A stretch of DNA of 64,000 bases, taken from positions 5,466-69,465 of the forward strand of contig CAZGAV010000010.1 of NCBI GenBank assembly GCA_964523575.1, in the 5' to 3' direction. A program made the translations under genes and the position numbers. Source of the stretch: an uncultured Ignavibacteriales bacterium. GTDB taxonomy: Bacteria; Zixibacteria; MSB-5A5; GN15; JAAZOE01. Under the pieces are notes generated by a model, which was not told the origin of the DNA, searched no databases, and saw nothing but the letters and a program-made list of their open reading frames with translations. Below, in pieces: positions 3,395 through 46,400 of the stretch; within the stretch, counting starts at the first letter, position 1; each line of letters starts with the position of its first letter.

Positions 3395-3418
3395 CTCGTG
3401 GACTCCACCACGAGTTTT
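3395..3418 (+). terminator. Rho-independent terminator candidate after the activator gene
   Basis: Stem CTCGTGG (3395-3401) / CCACGAG (3408-3414), 6-nt loop, then TTTT (3415-3418). It lies 41 bp after the stop at 3354. Confidence 0.5.
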
Positions 3419-3562
3419 CGGTCAGTTGCGTAAAAGATTGACTGAATATCTTTATAAGTGGCATGATAGAGCATGCAGCGATGCTCCGGCAACGCAATGC
3501 CGGGTTACCGTTTCCCTAAAAGTTCCTTGTCATTTGTGTCATATTTGTGCCCTCTCGCCAAT

Positions 3563-3598
3563 AAACCAGCTGCAAACAGACAAAACCAGCTGCAAACA
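3563..3598 (+). repeat. 16-bp direct repeat AAACCAGCTGCAAACA x2 (20-bp period)
   Basis: Identical copies at 3563-3578 and 3583-3598 in non-coding DNA. Confidence 0.6.
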
Positions 3599-3747
3599 AA
3601 CAAAAAATGGAAATCCCTTGTCCTGTTTTGACTTAAATGCTAATTGACGCCATTTCAATAGGTTACGAAAATCTCTTCCGGAGAATCCCAGCCTCTCCGC
3701 CAGTATCAGAAGATACTTTTTGGCTGTCGCGGGGGCAGAGGCCCCTC

Positions 3748-3820
3748 TTCTGCTGTCGCGTGGATGACCGGAGTTCCTACTTCAAAAGTAAAGTTCTATA
3801 ATTGTCCCAGCTTGCCCGCT
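3748..3820 (+). repeat. 73-bp perfect direct repeat, copy 1
   Basis: TTCTGCTGTCGCGTGGATGACCGGAGTTCCTACTTCAAAAGTAAAGTTCTATAATTGTCCCAGCTTGCCCGCT is identical to 3926-3998. Confidence 0.9.
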
Positions 3821-3925
3821 GCCAGAAGGCAGTTTTCGGCTGTCGCCATTATGACCTGACTATAATCCCAGAGTAACGAGAGTTCTATACTTGTCCCATC
3901 TTCCCCGACACGAATCCATCGTGTT

Positions 3926-3998
3926 TTCTGCTGTCGCGTGGATGACCGGAGTTCCTACTTCAAAAGTAAAGTTCTATAATTGTCCCAGCTTGCCCGCT
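3926..3998 (+). repeat. 73-bp perfect direct repeat, copy 2
   Basis: Identical to 3748-3820; the copies are offset by 178 bp. Confidence 0.9.
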
Positions 3999-4040
3999 CT
4001 TAGAATCACTTGTGAGCGTAGCGAATTAGTGATTCTTAGA
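3998..4040. other. Long imperfect hairpin at the boundary between the repeat array and the GIY-YIG unit
   Basis: Left arm TCTTAGAATCACT (3998-4010) pairs with right arm AGTGATTCTTAGA (4028-4040): 9 bp, one mismatch, then 3 bp, with a 17-nt loop. It lies immediately 5' of the sequence shared by both GIY-YIG copies (CCCTGAGCTTTAGCGA, 4041-4056). Confidence 0.6.
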
Positions 4041-4083
4041 CCCTGAGCTTTAGCGAAGGGCTGATTCTGTCGGGATTGCACTC

Positions 4084-4368
4084 ATGTGGTACATATATAT
4101 CCTGGAATGCCGTGACGGTTCCTATTACACCGGTGTCGCCAAAGACGTAAGAGCGCGGCTGAATAAGCATAATCCCGGCAAGGGCGCGAAATATACGCGG
4201 ATGAAGCGCCCGTGCACCATCATTTATGTCGAGGAACATCCGGATGAAAGCTCGGCACGCCGTCGTGAAATGGAGATCAAGGGCTGGCGGCGCGATAAGA
4301 AAGAAGGATTAATCCGTGGGTTTCCTTCGTCGGCCCTGGATGACCTCCTCAGGATCTCCGGGCAATAG
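4084..4368 (+). CDS. Small GIY-YIG nuclease superfamily protein (UPF0213/YhbQ-like), copy 1
   Basis: 94 aa. MWYIYILECRDGSYYTGVAKDVRARLNKHN...YTR...EIKGWRRDKK carries the GIY-YIG core (YIY...YYTG, R..RL..H, E..IK). 83 of 94 residues are identical to the ORF at 10345-10629. Confidence 0.9.
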   Translation: MWYIYILECRDGSYYTGVAKDVRARLNKHNPGKGAKYTRMKRPCTIIYVEEHPDESSARRREMEIKGWRRDKKEGLIRGFPSSALDDLLRISGQ

Positions 4369-4610
4369 CCCTCCGACGAATCCTACCTCCTCCGCCAGTA
4401 TCGGAAGATACTCTTTGGCTGTCGCGGGGGCAGGGCCCCTTTTCTGCTGTCGCATGGATGATCTCACAATATTCCCAGAGTAACCAAAGTTCGAAACTTG
4501 TCCCAGCCTCCCCGCTGCCAGAAGGCAGTTTTTGGCTGTCGCCATTATGACCTGACTATAATCCCAGAGTAACCAGAGTTCGATATTTGTCCCAGCTTTC
4601 TCCGCCACAT
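4369..4610 (+). repeat. Modular non-coding repeat array B (homologous to array A)
   Basis: Hairpins at 4398-4413 (AGTATC-GGAA-GATACT), ~4427-4439 (GGGGC...GCCCC) and 4516-4527 (TGCC-AGAA-GGCA). Each is followed by a T-run and CTGTCGC (4419-4425, 4447-4453, 4536-4542). The ~59-bp block 4536-4595 is near-identical to 3840-3898. Confidence 0.7.
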
Positions 4611-4646
4611 CATTTTCTAAGGCCACTCTTGACAAAAAAGGTCGCT

Positions 4647-4670
4647 GGACCAATTTAATATGTGGTACAT
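4647..4670 (+). other. Remnant of a GIY-YIG 5' end (GGACCAAT...ATGTGGTACAT) at the left edge of the cassette
   Basis: ATGTGGTACAT at 4660-4670 is identical to the first 11 nt of both GIY-YIG genes (4084-4094, 10345-10355). GGACCAAT at 4647-4654 recurs at 10321-10328, upstream of copy 2. After the 11-mer the reading frame diverges (MWYMSRRQ...). Confidence 0.4.
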
Positions 4671-4772
4671 GAGCCGGCGGCAGACCCGGCTGCGCAACTA
4701 TCTTGCGCCGCGCATCTTCAGCATCATGAATGCCACTCAACGGAAGGCGTCAATAATCTCGATATAAAATCA

Positions 4773-4801
4773 TTGACGTCGGCAATGCCTTTTTGTATAT
4801 T
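4773..4801 (+). promoter_or_regulatory. sigma-70-type promoter for the two-gene cassette
   Basis: -35 TTGACG (4773-4778), 17-nt spacer, -10 TATATT (4796-4801). It lies ~50 bp upstream of ATG 4854, which has an AGGTGA RBS. Confidence 0.55.
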
Positions 4802-4853
4802 ACTCTCAGGGAATAAAATCTCTTCAGGCATTTTCAACGTGGCAGGTGAAATC

Positions 4854-6665
4854 ATGTATAAAAATTCTTATTGGAAGAATAGGGGTAATCCGTGGGAATA
4901 TGATTCGGGTCCTCCGAAAAATCTATGTTGGCCGAGGTTATTTTCGGAGACGCCCAATTATCGCCGGCTTTCTCTGACGGCATTAGGCAGCGAGAAATTC
5001 AGGTGGCATTTCGGCCCGATGTATTTCCGCGGTCGAACGGGGGCCGGCAGAGTTAAAATTGTCATCATCGGTCAAGAAGGCGCGCAGGATGAGTGTCTTG
5101 CACACAGAGCATTTGTTGGCAGCACGGGAAGCAGGCTACAATATCTTCTTAATTTCATGGGGTTGGATTATTCCTATCTTTTCGTAAACACCTTCGTGTA
5201 CCCAATATACGGCCAATACGCCAGTTACTTCAAATGGCTGGCGCAAAATCTGGAGTCGCCGATTGTCCAGCATCGGCATGATATATTCAATTACATTCTG
5301 AAGAAAAACGATGTCCGGTTGGTTGTTGCGGTCGGGAAAGCCGCTGGAGAGTCGGTTATAACATGGGTAGAAAGCCGCGGCGGAACAGGCCCGGATGGTA
5401 CGGGTGATCTTTCAACCTGCAGCGGAAGTTTCCTCGATCCCAAGACCAGGATTGTCGGGGTTCGTCATCCGGGAGGGGCCAAAATCCCCGGAGAAATCGC
5501 CGAAATAAAACAGAGCTTTCAAGACGCCATAGACAAAATTAATACCTGGATTAAGCAAGATTCGGCCTGGTTGCCCCCCGACCCCGGAATGACAAGAGAT
5601 TTGAGTCTCCCATATTCATTCGGTAAAGCCGCCATTCCTTTTCGAGATTTGCCTTTTGGTATAACCTGGAGATTGGGAAAAGGCAGCACAACGAGTAACA
5701 GAAAGGATTCTCAACGATCGATACAATTGTTTTCGGCCAGCGGCAAATATAATAATTCTGGGGATAAAATCGTATACGCCGATTCAGCCCCCGGGACTGC
5801 GGAGGGGTATTCCGAAAAACCCGGTGATGTACCGTACGAACCGCAGGTTGCCGATTACAGGGATTACGATAAGGGGCCCGGCCTGTCGTTTGCACGCTTG
5901 TTCATGGGCGGCAAAAAGGATCTTGCCTGGCCGGATTTTTCGACCTTGGGAGTAAAATCTGACATATCGCTGGGCTATGGCCCGATTTATAGAGGTCGGC
6001 CAGGTAAAGCGACATTTCTCATCCTGGCAGATCAGCAATCTCATGATGATCTTTTTACCGGACGGGCCCTAACCGGTGAGTCCGGGCAGAGATTCCAGGC
6101 GTTTCTGAAAGCGATGGGTATTACCAGATCATATTGTATTCTGCGTATTTTGCCGGTGGACATGTTGGATCTCACTCCAGCCAAACGAAAATCCATAGTC
6201 ACCAATACGGAGATAGTAAAAATCTATGACGCCTTTCTTGACAAGATACTGGCCAAGAAGAAAACCAAATTGATATTAACTTTGGGTGAAATGTCGGCGA
6301 CATTGATTCAAAAATTGCAGACAGCGCCGATAGACGTCATAAATCTCCGCTCATGGCTTCAATCAGGGGCCCTGAGTGACTGGCAGAGTGCCATAAATAG
6401 CATCAAGACAAAGTCATATCCCAAAGATATTACCAATCCGTCATTTACATATAATGGCGGACGATGGCAAATACCAGGCTATGATTTGCCCTACGGGACA
6501 TTGAAATGGCTGGGCAGTTCGGGAGATCGGGCGCGAAGAGCCAAGGATAGTGCCGGGCAATGGTCAGCAGGATATTATAAACTATTCATGCCTCAATGGG
6601 CTTTCTCTCTGGCTCCTCCGCCGCTGTCCAATAGTGAGGCAAATTCCATAGCCAAGCATCCATAG
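4854..6665 (+). CDS. Protein with two tandem uracil-DNA-glycosylase-superfamily-like domains (function unknown)
   Basis: ORF 4662-6665 trimmed to ATG 4854 (AGGTGA 7 nt upstream; earlier codons overlap the promoter). Domain 1: VKIVIIGQEGAQDE..AFVGSTGSRL..LFVNTFVYP...VGVRHPGG mirrors UDG motif A (GxxPG..E...PFvG.aG), the N/F-containing strand and motif B (HPS). Domain 2: FLILADQQSHDDLFTGRALTGESGQRF...YCILRILP is a degenerate second copy. Fold call from motifs only. Confidence 0.55.
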   Translation: MYKNSYWKNRGNPWEYDSGPPKNLCWPRLFSETPNYRRLSLTALGSEKFRWHFGPMYFRGRTGAGRVKIVIIGQEGAQDECLAHRAFVGSTGSRLQYLLNFMGLDYSYLFVNTFVYPIYGQYASYFKWLAQNLESPIVQHRHDIFNYILKKNDVRLVVAVGKAAGESVITWVESRGGTGPDGTGDLSTCSGSFLDPKTRIVGVRHPGGAKIPGEIAEIKQSFQDAIDKINTWIKQDSAWLPPDPGMTRDLSLPYSFGKAAIPFRDLPFGITWRLGKGSTTSNRKDSQRSIQLFSASGKYNNSGDKIVYADSAPGTAEGYSEKPGDVPYEPQVADYRDYDKGPGLSFARLFMGGKKDLAWPDFSTLGVKSDISLGYGPIYRGRPGKATFLILADQQSHDDLFTGRALTGESGQRFQAFLKAMGITRSYCILRILPVDMLDLTPAKRKSIVTNTEIVKIYDAFLDKILAKKKTKLILTLGEMSATLIQKLQTAPIDVINLRSWLQSGALSDWQSAINSIKTKSYPKDITNPSFTYNGGRWQIPGYDLPYGTLKWLGSSGDRARRAKDSAGQWSAGYYKLFMPQWAFSLAPPPLSNSEANSIAKHP

Positions 6666-6678
6666 GAGGTACGCGCAA

Positions 6679-9600
6679 ATGGAGAAAATCAAATTGGGGG
6701 CAAATACCAAATATGCCCTCGAGGGTCGTGTCGTCTCTCTGGATGCAGAGTCGACAGTTTTCGAATCGGGAGTGATATATATTGAGGGTGATACGATTGT
6801 CGACGTGAGGAAGTCGTCGCAATCCCCTCCTCAGGGATTCACCAAGAAAGACATCATCAAAACCGGCGGAACCATCTATCCGGGTTTGATCGAGTTGCAC
6901 AATCATCTCAGTTATAATATCCTGCCTATGTGGGACGTGCCGAAGACGTTTTTCAATCGTGATCAGTGGCGAAGACACCCGGATTACAAGAAAAAAATGA
7001 CCGGTCCTATGCGGATCTTAGGGAAAATCGACGGTTACCTTCAAGCCATTGTCAGATATGTCGAATGCAAATTGTTATTTTCCGGGGTGACGTCGTCTCA
7101 GGGGATAACACTCTCCATCGCGGCCAAAATCCAGAAGTTGTACAAAGGGGTGGTCCGAAATGTCGAGCAGACAATAGATGATGATCTGCCCGGCGCTGAT
7201 ACCAGAATTGCCGATGTAGATGCAAAAGATGCGGCGCATTTTCAAAAGATACTGGAGAAGTGCAAGAACTGCTACTTAATACATCTGGCAGAAGGTGTCA
7301 ACACCAGCGCCAATAAACACTTTAAAGCGCTGCAAGTGTCCCCTGATAACTGGGCCATTACGGATAAACTGGCGGGGATACACTCGGTCGGATTATATCC
7401 CGAAGATTTTAAGGTCATGCGCGATCATAACGGTTCCATTATATGGTCGCCGATGAGTAATTTTCTCCTGTACGGAACAACGGCTGATATAAAATCGGCC
7501 AAGAAAAACGAACTATTGATCGGCATGGGATCCGACTGGTCAGCCAGCGGCAGCAAAAACCTGCTTTGCGAACTCAAAGTGGCTCATTTGTTCAATAAAA
7601 ACAATGGCAATCTATTTACCGACGAACAACTGATACGAACAGTGACAACCGACGCCGCAAAAATCCTGCACTGGGATAAAAAAATAGGAAGTCTCGAGAA
7701 AGGGAAAAAGGCGGATTTGATAGTCCTGAGGGGCAAGAAAGGGGAACCCTGCACCAATCTTATAAACTCCAACGAACATCAAATCATTCTTGTGGTTATC
7801 GATGGATGGCCAAGATTCGGTTACAAGCGCTTTTTGGGTAAATTTGACGTCACATTGGAAAAGGTAAGAATCGGCACCTATACCAGGTATATGAATCTGA
7901 AAAACGAATCGGAGAATATAATAGACATCGACGTTTCATTTAAGGATGCGCAAAAGAAATTGATTAAAGGTATGCGAGACCTTCCTCAGCTTGCCAAACA
8001 ACAGGAGGACTACGACAGCGGCATTTTCGCCGGCACAACCTTTATCTCGGAACACCAATCTGACGTTAGTATATTTTTGGAGCATGAAGACCATGAGGGC
8101 AGCTCTCAGCGACATCATTTTGGTGCGGAATTTTCCTGTGGAGGGCTCTTCGATCAGGGCGCGACCGTCTATTCCGAGATATTGGAGGGCCTGGAGCTCG
8201 ATCCGCCGACCATCGCAGATGACCATCGTTATTTTGACAAACTGGCCAGACAAATGAACCTGCCTGATTACATAGCCGCCGGGCTGCCGGGATACTATGG
8301 AAGAAAAGTCACAATATCAGCTGCCGACAGCGTGTCGCGTAACAAAAGCTATCTAAAGCGGTCGAATTTCGATTCAATTCAATCCTTGGCCACCTTCCGC
8401 ATGACACCGGGATATCTGCACCCAAATGACCGACTGACCATTATCGATCAGGCAATATCCATACTAAAAAATGCCTATGTTCATTTGCCTTTGAAAAGGG
8501 CCAGACATGCGTCCAACCCCCTGAAGCGGCTGGATTTATTGCGCGATGCGGTGCAATATGATGATGATTATAATTCCGAGTTGGAGTTTCACTCCGAGAT
8601 AATCCAGATATTTAATTCATTACGGGATCTGCATACGGTCTACCATTTGCCTGCGCCATTCAATGACAAGGTTGTCTTTGTCCCCTTCATGATTGAGGAA
8701 TGCTACGAAGGCGAAGAACCCAAATACATCATTTCGCGAATAATGAGCGATGATGTTCCCTCGAGTTTTAAGATCGGTGTCGAGGTCACCCATTGGAATA
8801 ATATACCTATCAGGAGGGCTATCGCCTCCAATGGGGATCGCTATGCGGGCAGCAATAAGGCGGCCAGATTTGCAAGAGGTCTGAATTCGATGACCTTCAG
8901 GCACCTGGAGGTCATGCTGCCGCCGGAAGAAGAATCAGTCACCCTTAATTATCGAGACCCCGGGTCTGGTAAGAGGACGAAGGGCATAAAGAGGAGAATC
9001 AGCTTCCCTTGGTTGGTGGGATCGGTCAACTCAGAATACATGCTGAACATGGAAAACGGCTGGCGTGCGGCGCATCAAACGTTGTCCGGCTATGATTATA
9101 ACACTCTTTTGGTTCAGAACACACGAAAGGCCTTTTTTGCCCCCGGCCAATTATATAAGCGCAAGCTTTCTGAGGGCAGCAACAAACGCGAAAATCCTTT
9201 CTATGGATTTGAAGAGACGCGTTTCCCCAATCACTTCCGCTGCAAAAAAGTAACGCATGAGGGAAAATCATACGGTTATATCCGCATTTTCTCCTTTGAC
9301 ACCGACAACCCTTTGGGGTTGGCCGAAGAATTCGCTCGGCTGCTTCACAGGATGCCGCCGACGGGAGTGATTCTGGATGTTCGCAATAATGGAGGCGGCC
9401 ACATCCGGGCGGCCGAGTATATGCTGCAAACTCTTTCGAAAAAATATATCAACACGGAAGCGGCGCAGTTTATCAATTCCGACTTCATTGAATATTTATG
9501 CAGGGTTCATTCCCCTTCGAATATAAATGAGCAGTTGGATTTGTCCAGATGGCGAGATTCCCTGGATGAGTTAAGAAATACCGGGGAAGATTATAGTCAG

Positions 9601-10044
9601 GGATTTCCGCTGACACCGCGGTCCCTGTTGAAACGATTTCGGTCGAATCGAGGTTACAAGCTGGTATTGATCACCGACGCCTTATGCTATAGCGCCACCG
9701 ATATATTTGCTTCAGGATTTCAAGATAATAAACTCGGTACAATACTGGGTATACATGAAAACACCGGTGCGGGTGGCGCCAACGTGTGGACTCATTCGAT
9801 CCTTTACGAGCTGACCCTGGATGTGAATGGGGATTCACAGTATTTCGAACCCCTCCCTTGTGGCGCCAATTTCACTGTAGCCATACGCCGCATGTTGCGG
9901 ACCGGCGACAATCAGGGCCTGCCTTTGGAGGATCTAGGTGTCGAACCGGATTATATCCACCGGATGACAAAAGCCGATTTGCTGGGTAAAGACCATGCAA
10001 ACAGGGATCTTATTGCCAGAGCGTGTGAAATTCTTCGTGAGTGA
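6679..10044 (+). CDS. Fusion protein: N-terminal COG0402-type (nucleobase/nucleoside deaminase-like) amidohydrolase and C-terminal peptidase S41 (tail-specific/tricorn-like) domain
   Basis: RBS TAGGAGGT precedes ATG 6679. Amidohydrolase motifs: PGLIELHNHLSY (HxH), IHLAEG (HxxE), HSVGL, SPMSNFLL, GMGSDWSAS, GSLEKGKKADLIVL. S41 motifs: DLHTVYHLP helper region, GVILDVRNNGGGH, LVLITDALCYSATDIFASGF (Ser nucleophile context), TILGIHENTGAGGANV. 1121 aa, with no signal peptide evident. Confidence 0.75.
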   Translation: MEKIKLGANTKYALEGRVVSLDAESTVFESGVIYIEGDTIVDVRKSSQSPPQGFTKKDIIKTGGTIYPGLIELHNHLSYNILPMWDVPKTFFNRDQWRRHPDYKKKMTGPMRILGKIDGYLQAIVRYVECKLLFSGVTSSQGITLSIAAKIQKLYKGVVRNVEQTIDDDLPGADTRIADVDAKDAAHFQKILEKCKNCYLIHLAEGVNTSANKHFKALQVSPDNWAITDKLAGIHSVGLYPEDFKVMRDHNGSIIWSPMSNFLLYGTTADIKSAKKNELLIGMGSDWSASGSKNLLCELKVAHLFNKNNGNLFTDEQLIRTVTTDAAKILHWDKKIGSLEKGKKADLIVLRGKKGEPCTNLINSNEHQIILVVIDGWPRFGYKRFLGKFDVTLEKVRIGTYTRYMNLKNESENIIDIDVSFKDAQKKLIKGMRDLPQLAKQQEDYDSGIFAGTTFISEHQSDVSIFLEHEDHEGSSQRHHFGAEFSCGGLFDQGATVYSEILEGLELDPPTIADDHRYFDKLARQMNLPDYIAAGLPGYYGRKVTISAADSVSRNKSYLKRSNFDSIQSLATFRMTPGYLHPNDRLTIIDQAISILKNAYVHLPLKRARHASNPLKRLDLLRDAVQYDDDYNSELEFHSEIIQIFNSLRDLHTVYHLPAPFNDKVVFVPFMIEECYEGEEPKYIISRIMSDDVPSSFKIGVEVTHWNNIPIRRAIASNGDRYAGSNKAARFARGLNSMTFRHLEVMLPPEEESVTLNYRDPGSGKRTKGIKRRISFPWLVGSVNSEYMLNMENGWRAAHQTLSGYDYNTLLVQNTRKAFFAPGQLYKRKLSEGSNKRENPFYGFEETRFPNHFRCKKVTHEGKSYGYIRIFSFDTDNPLGLAEEFARLLHRMPPTGVILDVRNNGGGHIRAAEYMLQTLSKKYINTEAAQFINSDFIEYLCRVHSPSNINEQLDLSRWRDSLDELRNTGEDYSQGFPLTPRSLLKRFRSNRGYKLVLITDALCYSATDIFASGFQDNKLGTILGIHENTGAGGANVWTHSILYELTLDVNGDSQYFEPLPCGANFTVAIRRMLRTGDNQGLPLEDLGVEPDYIHRMTKADLLGKDHANRDLIARACEILRE

Positions 10045-10105
10045 CGTTGTCGGTGTAGATATACCAGACCTCGTGAGACATATTGTGTTTTATTGTAATT
10101 CACAA

Positions 10106-10330
10106 ATGGAGGTTCGTTCGTTGAAGCATCAGATTCGATCAGCGAGGGTGAAAAGGCTGGTATCGGAGTTGGCGGAGGCTTTAGGCAGCGATGCCATGGC
10201 GTACCGTGACTTTGAAATCCCGCGCTCGACAATCTATCGGTGGAAGAAAGCCTATGTCGAGAAGGGGGTAGACGGTCTGGTTCAGAGAAAGCCAATCGCC
10301 AGGACCCTGAGCTTTAGCGAGGACCAATCG
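10106..10330 (+). pseudogene. Truncated transposase N-terminal helix-turn-helix remnant
   Basis: ...DFEIPRSTIYRWKKAYVEKGVDGLVQRKP... matches the HTH found at the N-terminus of IS481/IS630/IS3-type transposases. No catalytic domain follows, and the frame runs into the GIY-YIG unit. Confidence 0.45.
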
Positions 10331-10344
10331 ATGCGGAGCATCTT

Positions 10345-10629
10345 ATGTGGTACATATATATCCTGGAATGCCGTGACGGTTCCTATTACACCGGTGTCGC
10401 CAAAGACGTAAGGGCGCGGCTGGATAAACATAATTCCGGCAAAGGGGCGAAATATACGCGGATGAAGCGCCCGTGCACCATCGTCTATGTCGAGGAACAT
10501 CCGGATGAAAGCTCGGCGCGCCGTCGTGAGCTGGAAATAAAAAGCTGGCGGCGCGATAAGAAAGAAGAATTAATCCGCGGGTTTCCTTCGTCGGTCCCGG
10601 ACGGCCTCCCCAGTATCTCCGGGCAATAG
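10345..10629 (+). CDS. Small GIY-YIG nuclease superfamily protein, copy 2
   Basis: 94 aa, with 83/94 identity to copy 1. Shared flanks: CCCTGAGCTTTAGCGA (10305-10320 vs 4041-4056) and the 3' ...ACGAATCC.ACCTCCTCC. Confidence 0.9.
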   Translation: MWYIYILECRDGSYYTGVAKDVRARLDKHNSGKGAKYTRMKRPCTIVYVEEHPDESSARRRELEIKSWRRDKKEELIRGFPSSVPDGLPSISGQ

Positions 10630-10654
10630 TCCATCAACGAATCCAACCTCCTCC

Positions 10655-10674
10655 GGGGGCAGAAGCCCCTTTTT
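10655..10674 (+). terminator. Short GC hairpin plus T-run after GIY-YIG copy 2
   Basis: GGGGGC-AGAA-GCCCC followed by TTTTT. This is the same hairpin type as 3732-3745 and 4427-4439. Confidence 0.45.
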
Positions 10675-17204: not shown

Positions 17205-17585
17205 ATGAGCAAGGCGGTTGAGGTTATGGTTCTGGACGATGAACCGATTGTCTGTGAACGACTGCAGGAGTATTTGGAAAAGAAGGGAATGTCGGTGGAA
17301 ACCTTCACCGAATCGCCCAAGGCCCTCGACCGGCTCAAGGAAAAAACCTTCGATGTCATTGTCACCGATATCAGGATGGCCGGGCCGAGCGGGATCGATG
17401 TCCTCGTCGCCGTAAAAAACGAGGCTTATCCATCGGAGGTCATTCTGATCACCGGATACGGTTCCTTTGAGACCTTTCGCGCGGCCGAAGCGGTCGGCGC
17501 CTTCGATTATATAAACAAGCCGTTCAAGGTGGAAGAGGTTTACAAGAAGGTAACGAAAGCGGCGTCGAAGGCCCGCAAGCATTAA
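17205..17585 (+). CDS. Stand-alone response-regulator receiver (CheY-like) protein
   Basis: VMVLDDE, ...FDVIVTDIRM (phospho-Asp), ...ILITGYG, ...DYINKPF. No output domain. Confidence 0.9.
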   Translation: MSKAVEVMVLDDEPIVCERLQEYLEKKGMSVETFTESPKALDRLKEKTFDVIVTDIRMAGPSGIDVLVAVKNEAYPSEVILITGYGSFETFRAAEAVGAFDYINKPFKVEEVYKKVTKAASKARKH

Positions 17586-17647
17586 ACATAGCCGGGTGAT
17601 CCTACGGTAATGCAACCGGCGGCGATGCGGTAATATGAGTCGTATGG

Positions 17648-18043
17648 ATGATGAAGATGAATAAAAAGACAAGAATTCTGGTGCTGGACGACGAAGCCAT
17701 CGTCGGTGAACGCCTCAAGGCCTCGCTGGAGCGGGCCGGATTCGCCGTCGATGCTTTCGCCTCAAGCCATGAGGCCATCGAGAGCCTGCGCGAGGAACAT
17801 TATGATATCCTGGTAACCGATCTCAAGATGAGCGGCCCCGATGGTATGGAGGTATTGAGGGAGGCGCGGCAATCGAATCCGGGCATCAAGGCGGTCGTTA
17901 TCACCGGCTTCGCCACCTCCGAAACCGCCAGGGAAGCGATGCAAAGCGGGGCCGTGTCGTTTATCGCCAAGCCGTTCAAGATCAGTGAATTGAAAAGCCT
18001 TTTAAGCGAACTTGCGAGACCGAAAGATGATGCCGGAGAATAA
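17648..18043 (+). CDS. Stand-alone response-regulator receiver protein
   Basis: ILVLDDE, YDILVTDLKMSGPDG, VVITGFA, FIAKPFKISELKSLL. Alternative starts at 17651 and 17657. Confidence 0.9.
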   Translation: MMKMNKKTRILVLDDEAIVGERLKASLERAGFAVDAFASSHEAIESLREEHYDILVTDLKMSGPDGMEVLREARQSNPGIKAVVITGFATSETAREAMQSGAVSFIAKPFKISELKSLLSELARPKDDAGE

Positions 18044-18140
18044 TGGCAATAATATCCGGGACTGTAAAATATCAGAAGTCCCGGCGCACAGGGAAACGAC
18101 AACTTTGGATCATGACAATTATTGGGAGTGAGTAAGACGA

Positions 18141-19073
18141 ATGCCTGACTTATATATCTATCTGCCGGTCGCCAATGTCAGCGTTCATATCCTGGTGCTT
18201 CTCGGCCTCGGCCTGATAGTCGGCTTTCTCTCCGGGTTATTCGGGGTGGGAGGCGGCTTTCTGCTGACGCCGCTATTGATGATGATCGGGATTCCGCCGA
18301 CTGTCGCCGCCGCCTCGGACGCCAACCAGATCGTGGCCGCTTCCACCTCGGGCACGCTGGCCCACTGGCGGCTGGGCAACGTCGATTTCAAGATGGGACT
18401 GCTGCTGGTGATAGGGGGGATTATCGGCGGGACGCTGGGCGTCCAGCTCATCAAAATTCTCCGGGCGGCCGGTAATGCCGACTTCGTCATCAAAATCACC
18501 TATGTGATCATGCTCGGCGTTATCGGGACTTACATGTTTCAGGAAAGCCTCAGAAACCTGCGGCCGCGACCGCTCCAAAGCCCCAGAGAGAAAGTGCGCA
18601 AGAAATCATGGTTCGCCGGCTGTTGCGAAGCCCTGCCGCTGGAAGTCCAATTCGAAAAATCAGGCATCAGCCTGTCGGTTTTTATGCCCTTGATTCTGGG
18701 GACGCTGGTCGGTGTGCTTTCGGCCCTGATGGGCGTTGGCGGCGGGTTTATCATGGTTCCGGTGATGGTGTACATGTTGCGTATGCCGATGCATGTCGTC
18801 GTCGGGACAAGCCTCTTTCAGGTATTATTCACCTGCATCAACGTCACCTTCATGCAGTCGTATTACAATCATACGGTTGATCTCGTGCTGGCTATATTCC
18901 TGCTCGTCGGATCCACGACCGGGGCTCAGTTCGGGGCGCGGATCAGCAGCCGCCTCAAGGCCGACCAATTGAAAATTATTCTGGCGTCGATCGTCCTTCT
19001 GGTCATGATCAAAATGGCGGTCGGACTGATATTGCCCCCGAGCACTTTACTATCCTATCAGGGAGGTCATTGA
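18141..19073 (+). CDS. TauE/SafE (DUF81) family anion-exporter-like permease, paralog 1
   Basis: Two halves each carry the G(V/M)GGGF(L/I)(L/M)(T/V)P motif (FGVGGGFLLTPLL and MGVGGGFIMVPVM). Multi-TM. Confidence 0.85.
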   Translation: MPDLYIYLPVANVSVHILVLLGLGLIVGFLSGLFGVGGGFLLTPLLMMIGIPPTVAAASDANQIVAASTSGTLAHWRLGNVDFKMGLLLVIGGIIGGTLGVQLIKILRAAGNADFVIKITYVIMLGVIGTYMFQESLRNLRPRPLQSPREKVRKKSWFAGCCEALPLEVQFEKSGISLSVFMPLILGTLVGVLSALMGVGGGFIMVPVMVYMLRMPMHVVVGTSLFQVLFTCINVTFMQSYYNHTVDLVLAIFLLVGSTTGAQFGARISSRLKADQLKIILASIVLLVMIKMAVGLILPPSTLLSYQGGH

Positions 19074-19250
19074 TGATCCGGCAGGTGCCGTCGATCCGAA
19101 CCGGTAGATTTAGACGCCAGGCAGCCTTTACGCCGCTCAGGGACTTCCGGGAAACGGGAAGATTCCCGATCGTCTCGGCCGGGGCATGGATAATTGCCCG
19201 GCGCGACGGACTTTTTTATTATTCAACCATTGGGAGCCGATGATCAAGCC

Positions 19251-20183
19251 ATGTTTCATCTTTACGTTCATCTTCCGATTGCCAACGCCAGCGTGCAGAT
19301 GTTTCTTTTGCTCGGGCTGGGTTTGTCGGTTGGTTTTCTTTCCGGCCTGTTCGGTGTGGGCGGGGGCTTTTTATTGACTCCGCTGTTAATGATGATAGGG
19401 ATCGCACCCACCGTCGCGGCCGCTTCCGATGCCAACCAGATTGTCGCCTCCACCACGTCAGGCACGTTTGCCCACTGGCGATTGGGAAATGTTGATTTCA
19501 AAATGGGCCTGATCCTGGTGACCGGCGGGATTATCGGCGGGACGCTCGGCGTCCAGTTGGTCAAATTGCTGAGAGCGGCCGGCGAAGCCGGAGCGGTCAT
19601 AAAGGTCACGTACGTGATCATGCTCGGAATCGTCGGCTCCTACATGTTCCTGGAAAGTCTTAAAAACCTGCGGCACCAACAGCCCCCGGATACGGATGTG
19701 AGACGCCGGAAGAAATCATGGTTCGCCGTTTGCAGCGAAGCCCTTCCGTTGCCGGCCCGATTCGAAAAGTCGGGAATAACCATCTCGGTTTTTGTCCCGA
19801 TAATCCTGGGTTCGCTGGTCGGTATGCTTTCGGCGCTGCTGGGTGTCGGCGGCGGGTTCATCATGGTCCCGGTGATGATCTATTTGCTGCGGATGCCGAT
19901 GCACGTCGTTGTGGGTACGAATCTTTTTCAGGAAGTGTTCACCTGCATCAATGTCACTTTCATGCAGGCATACTACAATCATACGGTCGATCTTGTTCTG
20001 GCCCTGTTCTTGCTGGTCGGTTCCTCAACCGGGGCTCAGTTGGGGGCGCGGATCAGCAACCGGCTGAAATCCGACCAATTGAAAATTATTCTGGCCTCGA
20101 TTGTGCTGATCGTCATGGTGAAAATCGCCCTCGGGCTGTTGCTGCATCCCAATGCAATGCTTTCGTATGGGGGGGGTGAATGA
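19251..20183 (+). CDS. TauE/SafE (DUF81) family permease, paralog 2 (tandem duplicate)
   Basis: Trimmed to ATG 19251 so that MFHLYVHLPIANASV aligns with MPDLYIYLPVANVSV of paralog 1. The two are collinear and highly similar over their full length. Confidence 0.85.
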   Translation: MFHLYVHLPIANASVQMFLLLGLGLSVGFLSGLFGVGGGFLLTPLLMMIGIAPTVAAASDANQIVASTTSGTFAHWRLGNVDFKMGLILVTGGIIGGTLGVQLVKLLRAAGEAGAVIKVTYVIMLGIVGSYMFLESLKNLRHQQPPDTDVRRRKKSWFAVCSEALPLPARFEKSGITISVFVPIILGSLVGMLSALLGVGGGFIMVPVMIYLLRMPMHVVVGTNLFQEVFTCINVTFMQAYYNHTVDLVLALFLLVGSSTGAQLGARISNRLKSDQLKIILASIVLIVMVKIALGLLLHPNAMLSYGGGE

Positions 20184-20965
20184 TGTTCAGCTTATTTCGG
20201 CTGATCGGGCTCGTCTGCCTGCTCTTTCCGGCGCTTACGGCCGCCGTGGAGACCGCTTCCAATGACTCGCTGGTATCGTTGACACTGACGCCCGACCAAA
20301 TCCATGTCGGTACGTTTTATCGCGGAGCCACGGTGGATGCTTCGGCGCAAGTGCCCGAATGTGACGGGGCCATTGTGATCATGGCATCGGAAGGCGAGGG
20401 CGAGACCCTGAACAGAAAGGGGCGCGTGGTCGGCATCTGGCTGAATGTGGCCCAGGTAACAGTCCGCGATGTGCCCGATGTATATCTTCTGGGGGCGTCG
20501 GATAAATTGGAAAATATCTGTTCGCCCGAGGTTCGACAAGAATTGGGACTGGGCGTGGATTACCTGCGACAGCAGTTGAAATTCACCTGTGACAAGCCGC
20601 TGACCGGGACCGAATTCGATGAATTCCTGAGGCTGAAAAGCAAAAGCGGCACGTATAATATGGATATAAAAGCCGAATTGACGCCGGCCGGGCCGGGAAT
20701 GCAGGAATTTTCAGCAATCCTGCCTGTTCCGGCCACCATACCTCCCGGGAAATACGAAGTTTTGCTCTATTGCTTCCGGGGAGGCGAACCGGTTATGCGA
20801 GGGACGGCGACGCTCCTCATAGAACAGGTCGGATTCGCGCGATTGATGTCGGATCTGGCTCACAAGCGGGCGGCCCTTTATGGCGGGCTGGCGATAGTCA
20901 TCGCGATGGTCGTCGGTGTCGGCATGGGGATAGTGTTCAATTCGATGCGCGGAGCCGGCCACTAA
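20180..20965 (+). CDS. Membrane-anchored protein, possibly TIGR02186/Alph_Pro_TM-like TauE partner
   Basis: ATGA start/stop overlap with the TauE paralog. N-terminal signal/TM (FRLIGLVCLLFPALTAAV) and C-terminal TM (LYGGLAIVIAMVVGVGMGIVF). The size (~260 aa) and the adjacency to DUF81 recall the alphaproteobacterial TIGR02186 family. Not verified. Confidence 0.4.
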   Translation: MMFSLFRLIGLVCLLFPALTAAVETASNDSLVSLTLTPDQIHVGTFYRGATVDASAQVPECDGAIVIMASEGEGETLNRKGRVVGIWLNVAQVTVRDVPDVYLLGASDKLENICSPEVRQELGLGVDYLRQQLKFTCDKPLTGTEFDEFLRLKSKSGTYNMDIKAELTPAGPGMQEFSAILPVPATIPPGKYEVLLYCFRGGEPVMRGTATLLIEQVGFARLMSDLAHKRAALYGGLAIVIAMVVGVGMGIVFNSMRGAGH

Positions 20966-20993
20966 TTCGGCGAAAGATTTCGTCGGGAGAGAA

Positions 20994-21380
20994 ATGAATA
21001 ACAGGCTGGATATACTTATTGTCGATGATGAGGCCATCGTCTGTACGCGCCTGAAACCGGCGCTGGAGAAAGATGGCCATCGCGTGGAGACTTTCACCGA
21101 GAGCACTCGGGCTAAAAAGCGTCTCGAGGAAAGTCGGTTCGATATCGTCGTGACGGATATCAAAATGCCCGATGTCGACGGTATGGAGCTGTTTCGATTT
21201 ATCAGGGAAAAATGGCCGACGACCAGGGTGATAATTATTTCGGGCTTTGCCACGGTCGAGATAACAAGGGAGGCGTTCCAGGCGGGGGCCAGCGATGTGA
21301 TCGCCAAACCGTTCAAGATCAGCCAGCTCAAGGCTCTGGTCACCCGGGTGGCGTCGGAAATATTGGACGCCCGCGAATGA
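20994..21380 (+). CDS. Stand-alone response-regulator receiver protein
   Basis: ILIVDDE, FDIVVTDIKMPDVDG, IIISGFA, VIAKPFKISQLKALV. Confidence 0.9.
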   Translation: MNNRLDILIVDDEAIVCTRLKPALEKDGHRVETFTESTRAKKRLEESRFDIVVTDIKMPDVDGMELFRFIREKWPTTRVIIISGFATVEITREAFQAGASDVIAKPFKISQLKALVTRVASEILDARE

Positions 21381-43427: not shown

Positions 43428-46400
43428 ATGATGCGGACAACAATAGTAATAACAATGCTTCTCATGCTTGCCGCCGCAGTAGCGCCGGCGACAGGTTATT
43501 ATGTGTCGCCCGATGGCGATGATGCCAACGATGGCCTGACTCCCGGCGCCGCCTGGAAGGACATCGATAACGGCGATGTCAAAGGTCTTCTGGCGCCGGG
43601 CGACGTCGTCAATATCCTGCCGGGACTATATTCCACCACCGCAACTATCATGCTGAGCACCTCCGGCACCGAAACGCTTCCGATTACTTATCGAGGACCG
43701 GACAGCGGCGGAGTCATCGTCGATATGGGCGGGATCTCGGATGAAATCATCCAGATCGACGGCCATCATGTCAATCTGATCGGCCTGACCCTGACCAATT
43801 GCGGCCGCCACGCCATCCGCATCTACGGCGATACCTGTCTGGTCACCGAATGCTTTCTCCATGACTATGGTCTTCAGGGTATCGATGTTAACGGCGACGG
43901 CAATTTGATACAGAAAAATATCATGTATAACGCCGGCCAATGCGGTATTACCAACCGCTCCGGGGCCACCGGCAACAAATTTTATGGCAATACCATTTAC
44001 AATTGCGGCTATCAGGGTATCTGGATCGATTACACTGTCTATTCCTGCCGGGCTTTCAATAATGACATCGTCTTGTGCGACGAAGGTATTTCGGGGGCAT
44101 CATGGAATAAGTGCGGCTTTAACAACATCTGGAATTGCGCTTCCGGCAGCTACGTCGGTGGCGTTTATGATTCGGCCGGCGGTCTCGCAGTCGATCCTTT
44201 ATTCATGAATGCGGCGGGGGCCGACTTCAACCTGCAATCAGGTTCTCCGGTCATCAACAAGGGCATCGATCTCGGCTATTCATATTATGGCTATGGGCCC
44301 GATCTGGGGGCTTTGGAATACCTTCCGGAAATTCAACGAACCTATTGGGTTTCGCCGACAGGCAATGATCTGGCCGATGGATTTTCCGCAGCCACCGCCT
44401 GGAAATCTATTGATAATGGCGAGAAAAGGGGGATCCTGGTACCGGGCGATACTATCAATATCCTCCCGGGATTATATCAGCCGGCGGCGACGCTGGAAAT
44501 GATATCGAGCGGTTCGCCGACAGCGTCCATTGTTTATCGCAAAATCGGCAAGGCTTCGGCCAAAATCGACGGTCGCGCCACCATCAACACGCTGATATTG
44601 ATCGAGGGAGATTATGTCGAGATCCATGGTCTGGAATTGACCAACAACAAAGATCACGGAATTCATATCAAGGGTGACCACGGTCTAATTACCGGCTGTT
44701 ATATTCACGACATCGAAAATTTTGGAATCCGGCTCGAAGGCGATTCTATTCTGGTATTGAAAAATGTCATCGCTTTCACGCGCGACGACGGGATCCGAAA
44801 CGAAGACGCCTCTTACTATTGCCGCTACTACGGCAACACCATTTATGGTTGCACCAATGACGGCATGGAGCTCAAGAAGGGATCTTCCCGGGCTTTCAAC
44901 AACATCGTGGCCCAAAATGCGGTCGGTATCAAAGCCTCATCGACCGATATTTGCGCTTTCAACAATGTCTGGGGCAATCCGGGCGGCAATTACAGCGGGA
45001 CCGTCGATTCCGCCGGCGGTATTTCGGTCCTGCCGAAATTCGTCAATTCCGCCGCCGGACGTTATGACCTTCTGGCTTCCGCCTCCGAAATTGACGCCGG
45101 GCTGGACCTTGGTTATCCCTACAACGGGGCCGCCCCGGATATCGGCGCCTTTGAAAAATACAATGTCTATTATGTCAACCCCAGTGGTGACGATCTTCTT
45201 AGCGGCCGCACGCCCGACAGCGCCTGGGCCTACATCGATAACGGCGATTCTCTGTTATTTCCCGGCGACACCGTCTATGTTATGCCCGGCGCCTATACCA
45301 ACCGAGTCATAATTACGGACAGCGGTCTCGTTGATGACAGAATTGCCTATGTCGGCGTCAGGGATTCCTGCCTGATCGAAACGTCCGAAGCCGCCAACGC
45401 CGTCAGTCTTTTATCCGAATACATCCTCTGGTCGGGTATCAGCGTTCACAACGCCATATCCGACAACATGTATATCAACGGCGGCAACAATCGAATTGAG
45501 GCCGCCACCTTCGGGAGCGGAGGATCCTACGGCATTGATATCGCCGTCGGGCAAAACAATAACATCGTCCATAGTGTTTTTTCGAAAAACGCCCTGGCCA
45601 ATATCCACATTCACGACGACTATAATGCCATCTACAACTGTTCTTTTCTCGACTCCGCCGGCTATGGAATCGACGCTCAGGGGTATCAGCACCAGACCAT
45701 AACCAACTGCATCTTTCAAGGGACAAACGGCGAAGACGTGGCCGTGATTACCAATGCAACCTCATCGTTGACCTATTGCCTTTTCTATAATAACCTGGCT
45801 TCCGCCAGCGGCGGCATCGGCATGGGAACGGGATGTTTCGTGGCCGACCCGTTATTCATAGACCCTGCCGGCGGTAATTTCAGATTGCAGTCGCATTCCC
45901 CGGCCATTGACGCCGGGGTGTATGTTGGATTGCCGTTTGAGGGGTCGGCTCCCGATCGCGGCGCCTATGAAACCGGAATTCTCGATCAGTTGACGATTTC
46001 GCCCGTGTATGAATCGCTGAACGCCGATTCCCAGTATCGATTTGAAACCCTCGGATGGGACAGCGTTGGCTATCCGGCCGATCCCGGACATATAACCTGG
46101 TCGCATACCTTCGCCACCGGTAATATAAATGGCGCCGGTCTTTTTCAGCCGCAGATGATCGGAACAGGTGAAATTATCGCTGAATCGGATATCAATCTCA
46201 TCTCCGCGGCCTCGCCGACCATGACGGTGATTCCGGGCGCTTTGGATAATTTTGTTATAACCCCCAGCCGCGATACGATCTCGGCCGATGACACCAGACT
46301 TTTCACCGTCGCCGGATACGATCAGTGGGGCAATGAGGTGATCGAAACCGGATTACTGAACTGGCAGGTGATGAACAATATCGGCGTCATAGACGGCGAC

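Follow-up and report, generated by a model that had tools for sequence, protein, structure and literature searches.

A 64,000-nucleotide stretch of DNA from an uncultured Ignavibacteriales bacterium (GenBank assembly GCA_964523575.1, contig CAZGAV010000010.1, positions 5,466 to 69,465; hereafter the window) poses the question of what an array of very small hairpins is for, if the stems change their sequence from one copy to the next and still stay paired. The hairpins lie between positions 3680 and 4610, on both sides of a short gene for a GIY-YIG nuclease of the UPF0213 type, and alternate with T-rich runs and the heptamer CTGTCGC. A sequence-only reading of the window had offered four explanations, namely stacked terminators, a family of very short hairpin RNAs, a protein-binding array and miniature mobile elements. 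Here, we compare the array with public genomes and metagenome contigs (loci with L numbers). We consider it probable that the array is a recombination or insertion hotspot on the 3' ends of serine tRNA genes, furnished with stacked terminators, rather than a hairpin RNA family.

Serine-tRNA tails and covarying hairpins in the array

CTGTCGC begins at 3724, 3753, 3840, 3931, 4419, 4447 and 4536. This places 7 of its 18 copies in the window (6.6 expected by chance in 64 kb) inside the array, each behind a hairpin of 5-6 bp and a T-rich run. A second block, AGTTCnAnAnTTGTCCCAGC, occurs five times (3792, 3881, 3970, 4488 and 4577) and nowhere else in the window, where 0.16 copies are expected. Both counts are far above chance, and the seven modules of hairpin, T-run and CTGTCGC described in the sequence-only reading are all present, as is its perfect 73-bp duplication, which is bounded exactly at 3748-3820 and 3926-3998. 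The layout needs correction. The true repeat is a unit of 87-91 nt, consisting of CTGTCGC, a body of ~45 nt, the conserved block, CYTCYCCGC(C), a 5-6-bp hairpin and a T-run. Besides these units there are short modules of 28-29 nt (CTGTCGC-G-hairpin-T-run). On a larger scale, the block 3677-3930 is paralogous to 4372-4610. The elements of the array are:

3683..3702, + strand: displaced 3' end of a tRNA-Ser(GGA), with T-loop GAAT, T-stem CCCAG, acceptor CCTCTCC, discriminator G and CCA; read as an attR core
3702..3723, + strand: terminator-like module 1, hairpin AGTATC-AGAA-GATACT and T-run
3724..3752, + strand: short module CTGTCGC-G-GGGGC-AGAG-GCCCC-TCTTCTG, the same in L024, L005 (GTGGC/GCCAC) and L003
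3753..3839, + strand: unit b, type I body CTACTTCAA, degenerate T-arm and acceptor AGTTCTATAATTGTCCCAGCTTGCCCGC, hairpin CTGCC-AGAA-GGCAG and T-run; matches the nhmmer unit profile with E=3.5e-22
3840..3930, + strand: unit c, type II body TGACTATAATCCCAGAGTAAC, hairpin ACACG-AATCCAT-CGTGT and T-run; from the unit profile and unit alignment
3931..3997, + strand: unit d, identical to unit b as far as the end of the pseudo-acceptor, where the GIY-YIG cassette starts
4377..4397, + strand: second tRNA 3' fragment CGAATCCTACCTCCTCCGCCA, tRNA-Ser(TGA) type, identical over CGAATCCTACCTCCTCCG to the 3' end of the intact tRNA-Ser(TGA) of L015
4397..4446, + strand: hairpin AGTATC-GGAA-GATACT, T-run and CTGTCGC, then short module GGGGC-AGG-GCCCC and T-run; this pair is paralogous to 3677-3744 (85% identity)
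4447..4535, + strand: unit 8, type II, with the T-loop-like AGTTCGAAACTTGTCCCAGCCTCCCCG that is nearest to a real tRNA, hairpin CTGCC-AGAA-GGCAG
4536..4607, + strand: unit 9, type II, stopping at the end of the pseudo-acceptor, which is the end of the array

The origin of the conserved blocks can be read from the first of these elements. Positions 3683-3700 (GAATCCCAGCCTCTCCGC) are identical in 18 of 18 nt to the end of an intact tRNA-Ser(GGA) in metagenome contig L009 and are followed by CCA; a tRNA-Ser profile matches at 3683..3702. In L009, the tRNA gene called by ARAGORN ends in ...CTGGGTTCGAATCCCAGCCTCTCCG and leads directly into a hairpin, a T-run, CTGTCGC and a unit. This identity argues that the conserved block and the pyrimidine run behind it are a degenerate T-arm and acceptor strand, and every 87-91-nt unit carries such a copy, followed by its hairpin and T-run. 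The correspondence can be followed from the tRNA, GTTCGAA-----TCCCAGCCTCTCCG, to unit 8, GTTCGAAACTTGTCCCAGCCTCCCCG. Two units align to positions 56-87 of the tRNA-Ser profile, and some units of relatives hold exact matches of 16-17 nt to the tRNA end (L005_1 and L024_2 read TCCCAGCCTCTCCGCC). The blocks, previously taken for promoter elements, are thus primarily degenerate tRNA-Ser T-loop and acceptor sequence, and this tRNA origin, overlooked before, explains most of the architecture. Readings of the motifs as sigma-54 or Bacteroidetes-type promoters were discarded, because the spacing is wrong and none of 40 crudely called genes of the window has TAnnTTTG upstream. Whole decayed tRNA-Ser genes were considered as well; their length is similar to that of the units, but the tRNA-Ser profile matches the 3' third alone.

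The pairing of the hairpins was examined in 14 modules with 4-nt loops from the window and its relatives (five genomes). All 83 pair cells hold standard pairs and 24 of them are changed on both sides, which none of 500 shuffles equalled, although the modules were picked by hand and the figure is somewhat inflated; control registers slid along the sequence were paired in 29-55%. Thus AGTATC/GATACT stands against AGTAGC/GCTACT (the latter in L024 and L005), GGGGC/GCCCC against GTGGC/GCCAC, and, homologous to the hairpin of unit c, CACG/CGTG against CATG/CATG and CACAA/TTGTG (in L003 and L005). Double changes occur in five of the six stem pairs; the closing C-G pair hardly varies, nor does the loop A(G/A)A(A/G). 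This suggests hairpins of shared descent with true compensation and bears out the earlier proposal that structure rather than sequence is selected in the stems. It also speaks against the decay of a single local duplication without selection, in which the apparent compensation would be a product of hairpin-templated (quasi-palindrome) correction as the DNA is replicated. In keeping with such decay, there are perfect and near-perfect local duplicates, as well as 17-nt slippage duplicates in L003. Nevertheless, the unit family and both its subtypes are common to genomes with ~55% protein identity, and together with the pattern of double changes this makes unselected decay the least credible of the explanations considered here.

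On the + strand, nearly every stem is followed by a T-run, and the hairpins are located directly 3' of a real or degenerate tRNA end and ahead of a co-directional gene. They have the form of intrinsic terminators, a G+C-containing stem-loop followed by a T-run, with stems of 5-6 bp, and two modules pass a stricter scan. A G-T pair at the base of the stem (7 of 13) would be tolerated only in RNA from the + strand. Judged by these sequence features, the hairpin and T-run modules are putative intrinsic terminators, and stacked terminators come closest among the four explanations offered before. The same features bear on the idea that the array is a DNA-level platform for a recombinase, nucleoid protein or regulator, with the hairpins as operator-like palindromes. 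Its attraction is that sequence motifs are conserved without RNA structure and that GGCTGTCGCC is a small palindrome by itself. However, palindromes bound by proteins keep their sequence, whereas here the sequence varies and the pairing is kept. In addition, the T-runs are confined to one strand, the G-T pair at the stem base works in RNA alone, and no candidate binding protein is linked to the array. We regard a binding platform as very improbable.

In L003 (3760-3924), CTGTCGC itself serves as the loop of a GGGC/GCCC hairpin, and a 17-nt mini-module, CTGTCGCCCCTTTTGGG, is duplicated in tandem. The array does not resemble clustered regularly interspaced short palindromic repeats (CRISPR), since its variable parts are palindromes of 14-17 nt, its repeats are degenerate and 60-75 nt long, and the neighbouring open reading frames (ORFs) include no cas genes.

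A leader arm at the displaced tRNA end

The tRNA-Ser fragment at 3683 is not preceded by the body of a tRNA, and ARAGORN calls no intact tRNA in the window. What adjoins it instead is a conserved element:

3525..3682, + strand: the leader, a conserved non-coding arm adjoining the tRNA fragment; read as the right (P) arm of an integrative element

The leader contains TGTGCC repeats, two A/C-rich direct repeats AAACCAGCTGCAAACA (3563-3602) and a promoter-like site, TTGACG (3644-3649), 17 nt and GAAAAT (3667-3672), which ends 7 nt before GGAGA. Leaders of ~160-180 nt, 70-84% conserved, are found in L024, L003 and L002; the leader of L005 has different upstream repeats. Leaders of a second type, which have direct repeats AACTTAACGCAACTTGA, abut a tail of the GGA type in L005 and of the TGA type in L022, whereas the window type carries AAACCAGnnnCAAAC repeats. 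The two types suggest at least two families of elements that target tRNA-Ser.

Three comparisons show how the leader relates to its surroundings. L002, with leader and fragment, and L009, with a UPF0014 gene and the intact tRNA, differ in only 2 of ~146 nt downstream, while their upstream sequences are unrelated; the leader has no relation to the native upstream flank of the L009 tRNA-Ser. The strain variants L026 and L024 differ in 11 of 75 nt upstream of GGAGAATCCCAGC and in 1 of 1079 nt downstream (p=5e-13), that is, they are 85% identical before the junction and 99.9% after it. Finally, the homology of the window with L024 starts at 3525; the flank to the left differs and the MarR side is common to both. 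The leader evolves separately from the downstream sequence, and in a relative it replaces the tRNA body together with its native upstream flank. Taken together, these comparisons argue for an attR, the right-hand junction of a tRNA-targeting integrative element. The window itself contributes a fragment identical to the 3' part of a tRNA and adjoined by non-tRNA DNA; occupied and empty sites and the sharp change of relatedness at the junction come from relatives and not from the window genome. Fragments of tRNA 3' ends are a widespread and documented product of integration (PMC9897764). A search of IMG/VR yielded no viral match for the leader junction.

Two other origins were considered for the leader and the units. 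The leader could be the native promoter of a tRNA-Ser gene with an internal deletion, in which GGAGA would pair with UCUCC, but given the unrelated flank in L009 and the break between L026 and L024 this is only remotely possible. The units, in turn, might be older scars of the leader element, but a profile of the leader-proximal sequence finds no unit body.

The promoter-like site raises the question of whether the array is transcribed into small RNAs. A TTGACN-17-NANAAT geometry is conserved in the leaders and would start transcription at the GGAGA of the fragment in six genomes. Each unit could likewise be a mini-gene, in which the expanded T-loop acts as a -10 element (TATAnT) and drives an RNA of 30-35 nt, made of acceptor strand, terminator hairpin and U-tail. 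Such an RNA would be a genomically encoded counterpart of small RNAs derived from tRNA 3' fragments, and its CCUCUCC would be complementary to ribosome-binding sites of the GGAGG type. In favour of this proposal, no part of the unit is better conserved than AGTTCTATAnTTGTCCCAGC, ~12 of 14 units keep A2 and T6 of the hexamer, and the hairpins keep their structure rather than their sequence and are followed by a U-run, as in Hfq-type small RNAs. On the other hand, the box has neither a -35 nor an extended -10 element, the acceptor strand, which would be the seed, is less conserved than the box, and neither promoter type is enriched upstream of genes in the window. The RNAs would also be unusually short, with terminators of only 5-6 bp. 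No conserved structure was found beyond the hairpin. RNAalifold gives no consensus for 14 units on the + strand and, on the - strand, nothing but pieces of the variable hairpins, folding of the whole array gives z = -1.3 and -1.1, and Rfam has no match at the gathering threshold over the 64 kb and just noise at E<=10 over 3400-4800. The earlier suggestion of a family of very short hairpin RNAs is therefore not upheld, and we think it improbable that the units are mini-genes.

Units and GIY-YIG cassettes in related genomes

The sequence-only reading had called for a search of related genomes, and this proved productive. A scan of public genomes and metagenomes recovered the same 87-91-nt tandem units in three metagenome-assembled genomes (MAGs), labelled Zixibacteria, Ignavibacteriales and Fibrobacteres-Chlorobi-Bacteroidetes (FCB) group, and in metagenome contig L009. 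Units are present in L002/L009, L003, L004, L005 and L024, and the unit alignment shows two subtypes common to several genomes. Four of six matches to the metagenome pattern (L007, L008, L010 and L011) were isolated chance matches without an array. The JGI metagenome contigs L001 and L006 are identical to the window, as are the short contigs L012-L014 to parts of it; L001 begins at 3840 and L006 stops at 3846. Since both break at a CTGTCGC boundary, the repeats appear to interrupt assembly from short reads and may be collapsed to fewer copies in MAGs.

The arrays of the relatives cast doubt on a tie between array and nuclease. L004 holds six near-identical 87-nt copies as an orphan array, with neither tRNA nor leader. 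In L002/L009, L003, L004 and L005, the units are arrayed without a GIY-YIG gene, which is the rule in other genomes. The units thus do not depend on this gene, and the array is not, as previously described, a structure wrapped around it. The gene belongs to a cassette with two copies in the window:

3998..4083, + strand: 5' part of the cassette, a 13-bp hairpin (inverted repeat I1/I2, 3998-4010 / 4028-4040, loop GAGCGTAGCGAATT) and the motif CCCTGAGCTTTAGCGAAGGG (4041-4060)
4084..4368, + strand: GIY-YIG copy 1, 94 aa, UPF0213 type (Pfam PF01541, E=4e-21; PDB 1zg2 and 1ywl, both UPF0213)
10345..10629, + strand: GIY-YIG copy 2, 91% nucleotide identity to copy 1 (4081-4380 vs 10342-10641)
10638..10674, + strand: tRNA 3' fragment CGAATCCAACCTCCTCCG, then hairpin GGGGC-AGAA-GCCCC and T-run, without the 32-nt module

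Copy 1 is followed by 32 nt (~4393-4424, the AGTATC/GATACT hairpin with T-run and CTGTCG) that are absent after copy 2, where the alignment picks up again at the GGGGC/GCCCC hairpin; the clean presence and absence of a module noted earlier is thereby confirmed. A truncated ORF resembling a helix-turn-helix transposase (9995-10300) precedes copy 2.

The context of eleven distinct genes of the family was surveyed. Ten lie directly after a tRNA gene, a fragment or a pseudo-end. The tRNA immediately upstream is intact in six, namely Ser(TGA) in L015 and L029, Ser(GGA) in L019, Ser(CGA) in L023, Pro(TGG) in L030 and Tyr in L031, and a fragment or pseudo-tail in four (window copy 1, L022, L021 and L024). 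In six of the eleven, the stretch of the tRNA that runs from C56 to its 3' end is repeated a few nt past the stop codon; in L023, the gene is flanked by the tail repeats CGAATCCCCCCCTCTCCGCCA ... CGAATCCCCCCTCTCCGCCA. Between tail and start codon, all GIY-YIG loci carry a hairpin and the motif CCCTGAG...CGAAGGG. In the window, and in the same order directly after the intact tRNA genes of L015, L019, L023, L029, L030 and L031, this part consists of a long hairpin with GAGCGnAGCGAnTT in its loop, followed by one to three copies of (C)CCTGAG-N4-9-CGAAGGG, and has no T-run, which suggests co-transcription with the tRNA and a processing or regulatory element. At an orthologous UPF0014-tRNA-Ser(GGA) locus, the cassette is missing in L009 and present in L019/L020. 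In the window, it begins exactly at the end of the pseudo-tail of unit d, and copy 1 is followed by a tRNA-Ser(TGA)-type tail identical to that of L015, with an array of its own (4377-4607). The locus therefore joins two tRNA-Ser-tail arrays via the cassette.

Several further observations concern the cassette and its surroundings. In L021 (~2330-2400), a tRNA-Pro-like 3' fragment, GGTCGAGGGTTCAAATCCCTCCGCCCCGACCA, lies directly before the cassette and is preceded by direct repeats ATCAAATCGTTTCAAATCGTTTCAAATCG; ARAGORN calls no tRNA at this place. About 55 nt past the end of the array, at 4660-4670, ATGTGGTACAT repeats the first 11 nt of the GIY-YIG ORF (M-W-Y-I/M). It is located at the nominal start of the ORF 4662-6665, is also part of inverted repeat I1, and looks like the truncated 5' end of a third GIY-YIG gene or a rearrangement junction. 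The 6.2-kb segment between the two copies encodes a two-domain protein of the uracil-DNA glycosylase superfamily (4662-6665) and a 1121-aa fusion of amidohydrolase and peptidase S41 (6679-10044), besides the truncated transposase-like ORF. It is missing in L024, where array, GIY-YIG gene and MarR gene follow each other directly; this segment may have been inserted or deleted by recombination between the GIY-YIG copies. The end of the GIY-YIG ORF and the bases after it (4355-4384; GGGCAATAGCCCTCCGA-CGAATCC; likewise the ends in L019 and L015) are colinear with the L009 tRNA-Ser(GGA), GGGGTCAAAAGCCCCTCCTGGGTTCGAATCC. By eye and unsupported by profile search, this colinearity spans variable arm, T-stem and T-loop, with the 5' strand of the T-stem deleted, so the conserved C-terminal ...SGQ* may be encoded by sequence that derives from the tRNA. 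Deleted GIY-YIG cassettes were rejected as the origin of the units. TGGATGACC is equidistant from the tail in gene and units, but even at E<=10 the unit profile has no match in the gene, and the C-terminal tail of GIY-YIG is also conserved as protein.

We propose the following course of events for a hotspot on tRNA-Ser 3' ends. The leader would be the P arm of a tRNA-Ser-specific integrative element and, with the fragment, form its attR; to the left of the window one would expect the intact tRNA and the integrase. The units would have arisen once, from a tRNA 3' end, a terminator and about 45 nt of flank, and would later have been amplified, shuffled and homogenised through recombination between the repeated tRNA-end cores. 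The route may have been unequal crossing-over or gene conversion, possibly aided by a T-loop-specific recombinase or by nuclease-made breaks; by analogy with the phage nuclease SegB, breaks made by the tRNA-associated GIY-YIG nuclease could promote exchange. Unequal exchange and gene conversion are supported by the six L004 copies, which are a mosaic of variants, by identical hairpin modules at L003 and L004, two loci of one MAG, and by hairpin types that are paired with different units in the window and in L024. The terminators would keep transcripts begun at the strong tRNA promoter, or at the outward promoter-like site of the leader, from running on into the co-directional genes downstream, and selection for this block would keep the stems paired while their sequences drift. 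The GIY-YIG cassette would be a separate occupant of the same slot, bringing a tRNA-Ser(TGA)-type tail and its own array.

Much of this evidence could also be read in terms of mobile cassettes. Here, the units and the GIY-YIG gene would be integron-like cassettes anchored on the tRNA-Ser tail and moved by a T-loop-specific recombinase or by break-and-copy homing of UPF0213, each cassette carrying its own copy of the tRNA tail and its hairpin, and the 87-91-nt units being non-autonomous mini-cassettes. Leader, GIY-YIG cassette and units all join at the same place in the T-loop or tail, and hairpin types sit on different units in the window and L024 as if exchanged at the cores. The identical modules at L003 and L004, the orphan array of L004, the presence and absence of the cassette between L009 and L019, and flanking tails of one cassette that can be of different tRNA-Ser types (window, L022) point the same way. 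Furthermore, SegB, a free-standing homing endonuclease of the GIY-YIG type from phage, cleaves tRNA-containing DNA and sets off the tandem amplification of segments via short homologies (PMC13096335).

Against such cassettes stands the lack of any recombinase linked to the arrays; the tyrosine recombinase of L003 is Xer-like and 2 kb away. The UPF0213 genes of other bacteria sit in fixed contexts. The 94-aa protein has the GIY-YIG catalytic domain and shows presence and absence at a conserved locus, as free-standing homing endonucleases do, but it is a single domain without the added DNA-binding domain that gives specificity for a long site, and it matches neither NCBIfam nor PHROG. An element of 89 bp is too small for circularisation as duplex DNA, the tRNA core is missing from the short modules, and the arrays are identical in four strain variants. 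The units show no dyad symmetry across their length, as attC sites would, and no IntI is found in the examined part of the window. An inverted-repeat search, as for miniature inverted-repeat transposable elements (MITEs), yields the hairpin of the GIY-YIG cassette alone, and the copies are tandem and co-oriented. Integron-like movement of units and gene therefore strikes us as unlikely, though less so than mini-genes. Its broader form, in which tRNA tails, chiefly Ser, anchor a cassette system of an FCB/Zixibacteria-like clade, the single-domain UPF0213 nuclease or a T-loop-specific recombinase inserts minimal cassettes directly 3' of the tRNA, each with a tail that replaces that of the tRNA and with a hairpin, and the conserved expanded T-loop of the mini-cassettes is a recognition site or promoter, is in our view equally doubtful.

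A hotspot with stacked terminators has its own difficulties, which need to be weighed. CTGTCGC, ATGAC(C) and above all AGTTCTATAnTTGTCCCAGC are conserved at ~75-90% across genomes with ~52-58% protein identity. This exceeds what neutral relics would retain, so the units either have a function beyond termination or move horizontally; the motifs would point either to a role at sequence level, as the promoter of a very short RNA derived from the tail or as a site recognised by a recombinase or nuclease, or to horizontal spread. The T-loop-like segment is expanded by 5 conserved nt that can be read as a -10 box (TATAnT), for which terminator function alone is not sufficient. The array is identical in the four strain-level variants, which argues against fast turnover. 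As terminators, the hairpins are weak, with free energies of about -5 to -11 kcal/mol; the weakness of the stems may be the reason for their stacking. The 14 modules of the covariation set were selected for 4-nt loops, and profile searches detect no similarity of the unit body to the leader, to the rest of the tRNA or to the GIY-YIG gene. Finally, the window, which starts only 3.7 kb to the left of the junction, contains neither an intact tRNA-Ser nor an integrase, so that the attR reading rests on the relatives, and ordinary genes adjoin the leader (a sigma-54 activator in the window, the nos cluster in L005).

Other repeats of the window are unrelated to the array. They comprise a tandem duplication of ~1.1 kb with 76-79% identity (18160-18896 vs 19270-20006), repeats with a period of ~830 nt at 43.5-46 kb (43533-45972) and segments with a recurring ...KPF motif (17495-21317), and probably represent paralogous genes or domains.

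Significance and comparison with known systems

The array is best read as tRNA-Ser-tail repeats with putative terminators, an unusual form of tyrT-like repeats and attR fragments, and not as a new RNA family. A puzzling family of covarying mini-hairpins thereby gains a concrete origin in tRNA-Ser tails and putative terminators at a probable integration hotspot, and scans that flag structured repeats should be read with caution. The array also provides a second, phylogenetically distant case of the old and unexplained tyrT phenomenon of E. coli, one that spans genera and whose conservation argues for a function. The most interesting by-product is the recurrent UPF0213 cassette linked to tRNA tails. 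UPF0213 is a widespread GIY-YIG family with solved structures and no known role, and the genes of this clade offer a lead, as they directly follow tRNA genes (Ser, Pro, Tyr), from which a conserved hairpin and motif separate them, and are often bracketed by repeats from T-loop to CCA. We found no prior report of a tRNA-Ser-tail array or a tRNA-linked UPF0213 cassette in the searchable literature.

Integrative elements that target tRNA genes and leave attR and attL fragments are described in Reiter 1989 and Williams 2002, as cited in PMC9897764. The locus shares with them a 3' fragment identical to a tRNA tail, a junction in the T-loop, foreign DNA adjoining it, and occupied and empty relatives. 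It differs in the tandem degenerate tails behind the fragment, which ordinary single integrations do not produce. SegB belongs to the tRNA cluster of T-even phages, and there, too, a GIY-YIG gene lies among or next to tRNA genes. The gene described here is chromosomal and encodes a single-domain protein of 94 aa of the UPF0213 type without a PHROG match.

Integron arrays and clusters of attC sites lacking integron integrases (CALINs) likewise consist of short, co-oriented modules that are bounded by repeats resembling recombination sites and have small genes among them. In contrast, the array has no attC architecture (R''/L''/L'/R' palindrome, GTTRRRY) and no integron integrase, and its repeated site is a tRNA tail. 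Repetitive extragenic palindromes, bacterial interspersed mosaic elements (REP/BIME) and MITEs are also short intergenic repeats with hairpin potential at several loci. Here, however, the hairpin sequence varies, there are no terminal inverted repeats, target duplications or genes of the type of REP-associated tyrosine transposases (RAYT), and all copies have one orientation and adjoin tRNA tails.

The closest analogue are the tyrT repeats of E. coli (rttR/rtT RNA, tpr). In the tyrT-tyrV locus of K-12, tandem repeats of 178 nt each end in a 19-nt tail of tRNA-Tyr that starts at the T-loop, and this 3' end, AATCCTTCCCCCACCACCA, recurs three times after tyrV. Each repeat (L028, 1286600-1287330, minus strand) also has T-loop-like CCAACGAATCCGC and AAGGTTCGACT, pieces similar to the C(A/G)ACGAATCC junction that follows the GIY-YIG genes described here. 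At the level of homology there is no link, as RtT RNA (Rfam RF00391) gives no match at the gathering threshold or at E<=10, and the array is an analogue rather than a member of this family. Both are tandem, lie downstream of a tRNA and are co-directional with it, and in tyrT, transcription ends within the repeats, as it would at the putative terminators of the array. The units described here are shorter, 87-91 nt instead of 178 nt, and derive from tRNA-Ser instead of tRNA-Tyr. Their tail is degenerate and has a 5-nt expansion of the T-loop, and every unit ends in a hairpin resembling an intrinsic terminator. In the window, the array follows a displaced fragment and not an intact tRNA, and the family spans genera. 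In L009, where the array follows an intact tRNA-Ser, the arrangement is that of tyrT itself, with tandem repeats 3' of a tRNA that carry the 3' segment of that tRNA.

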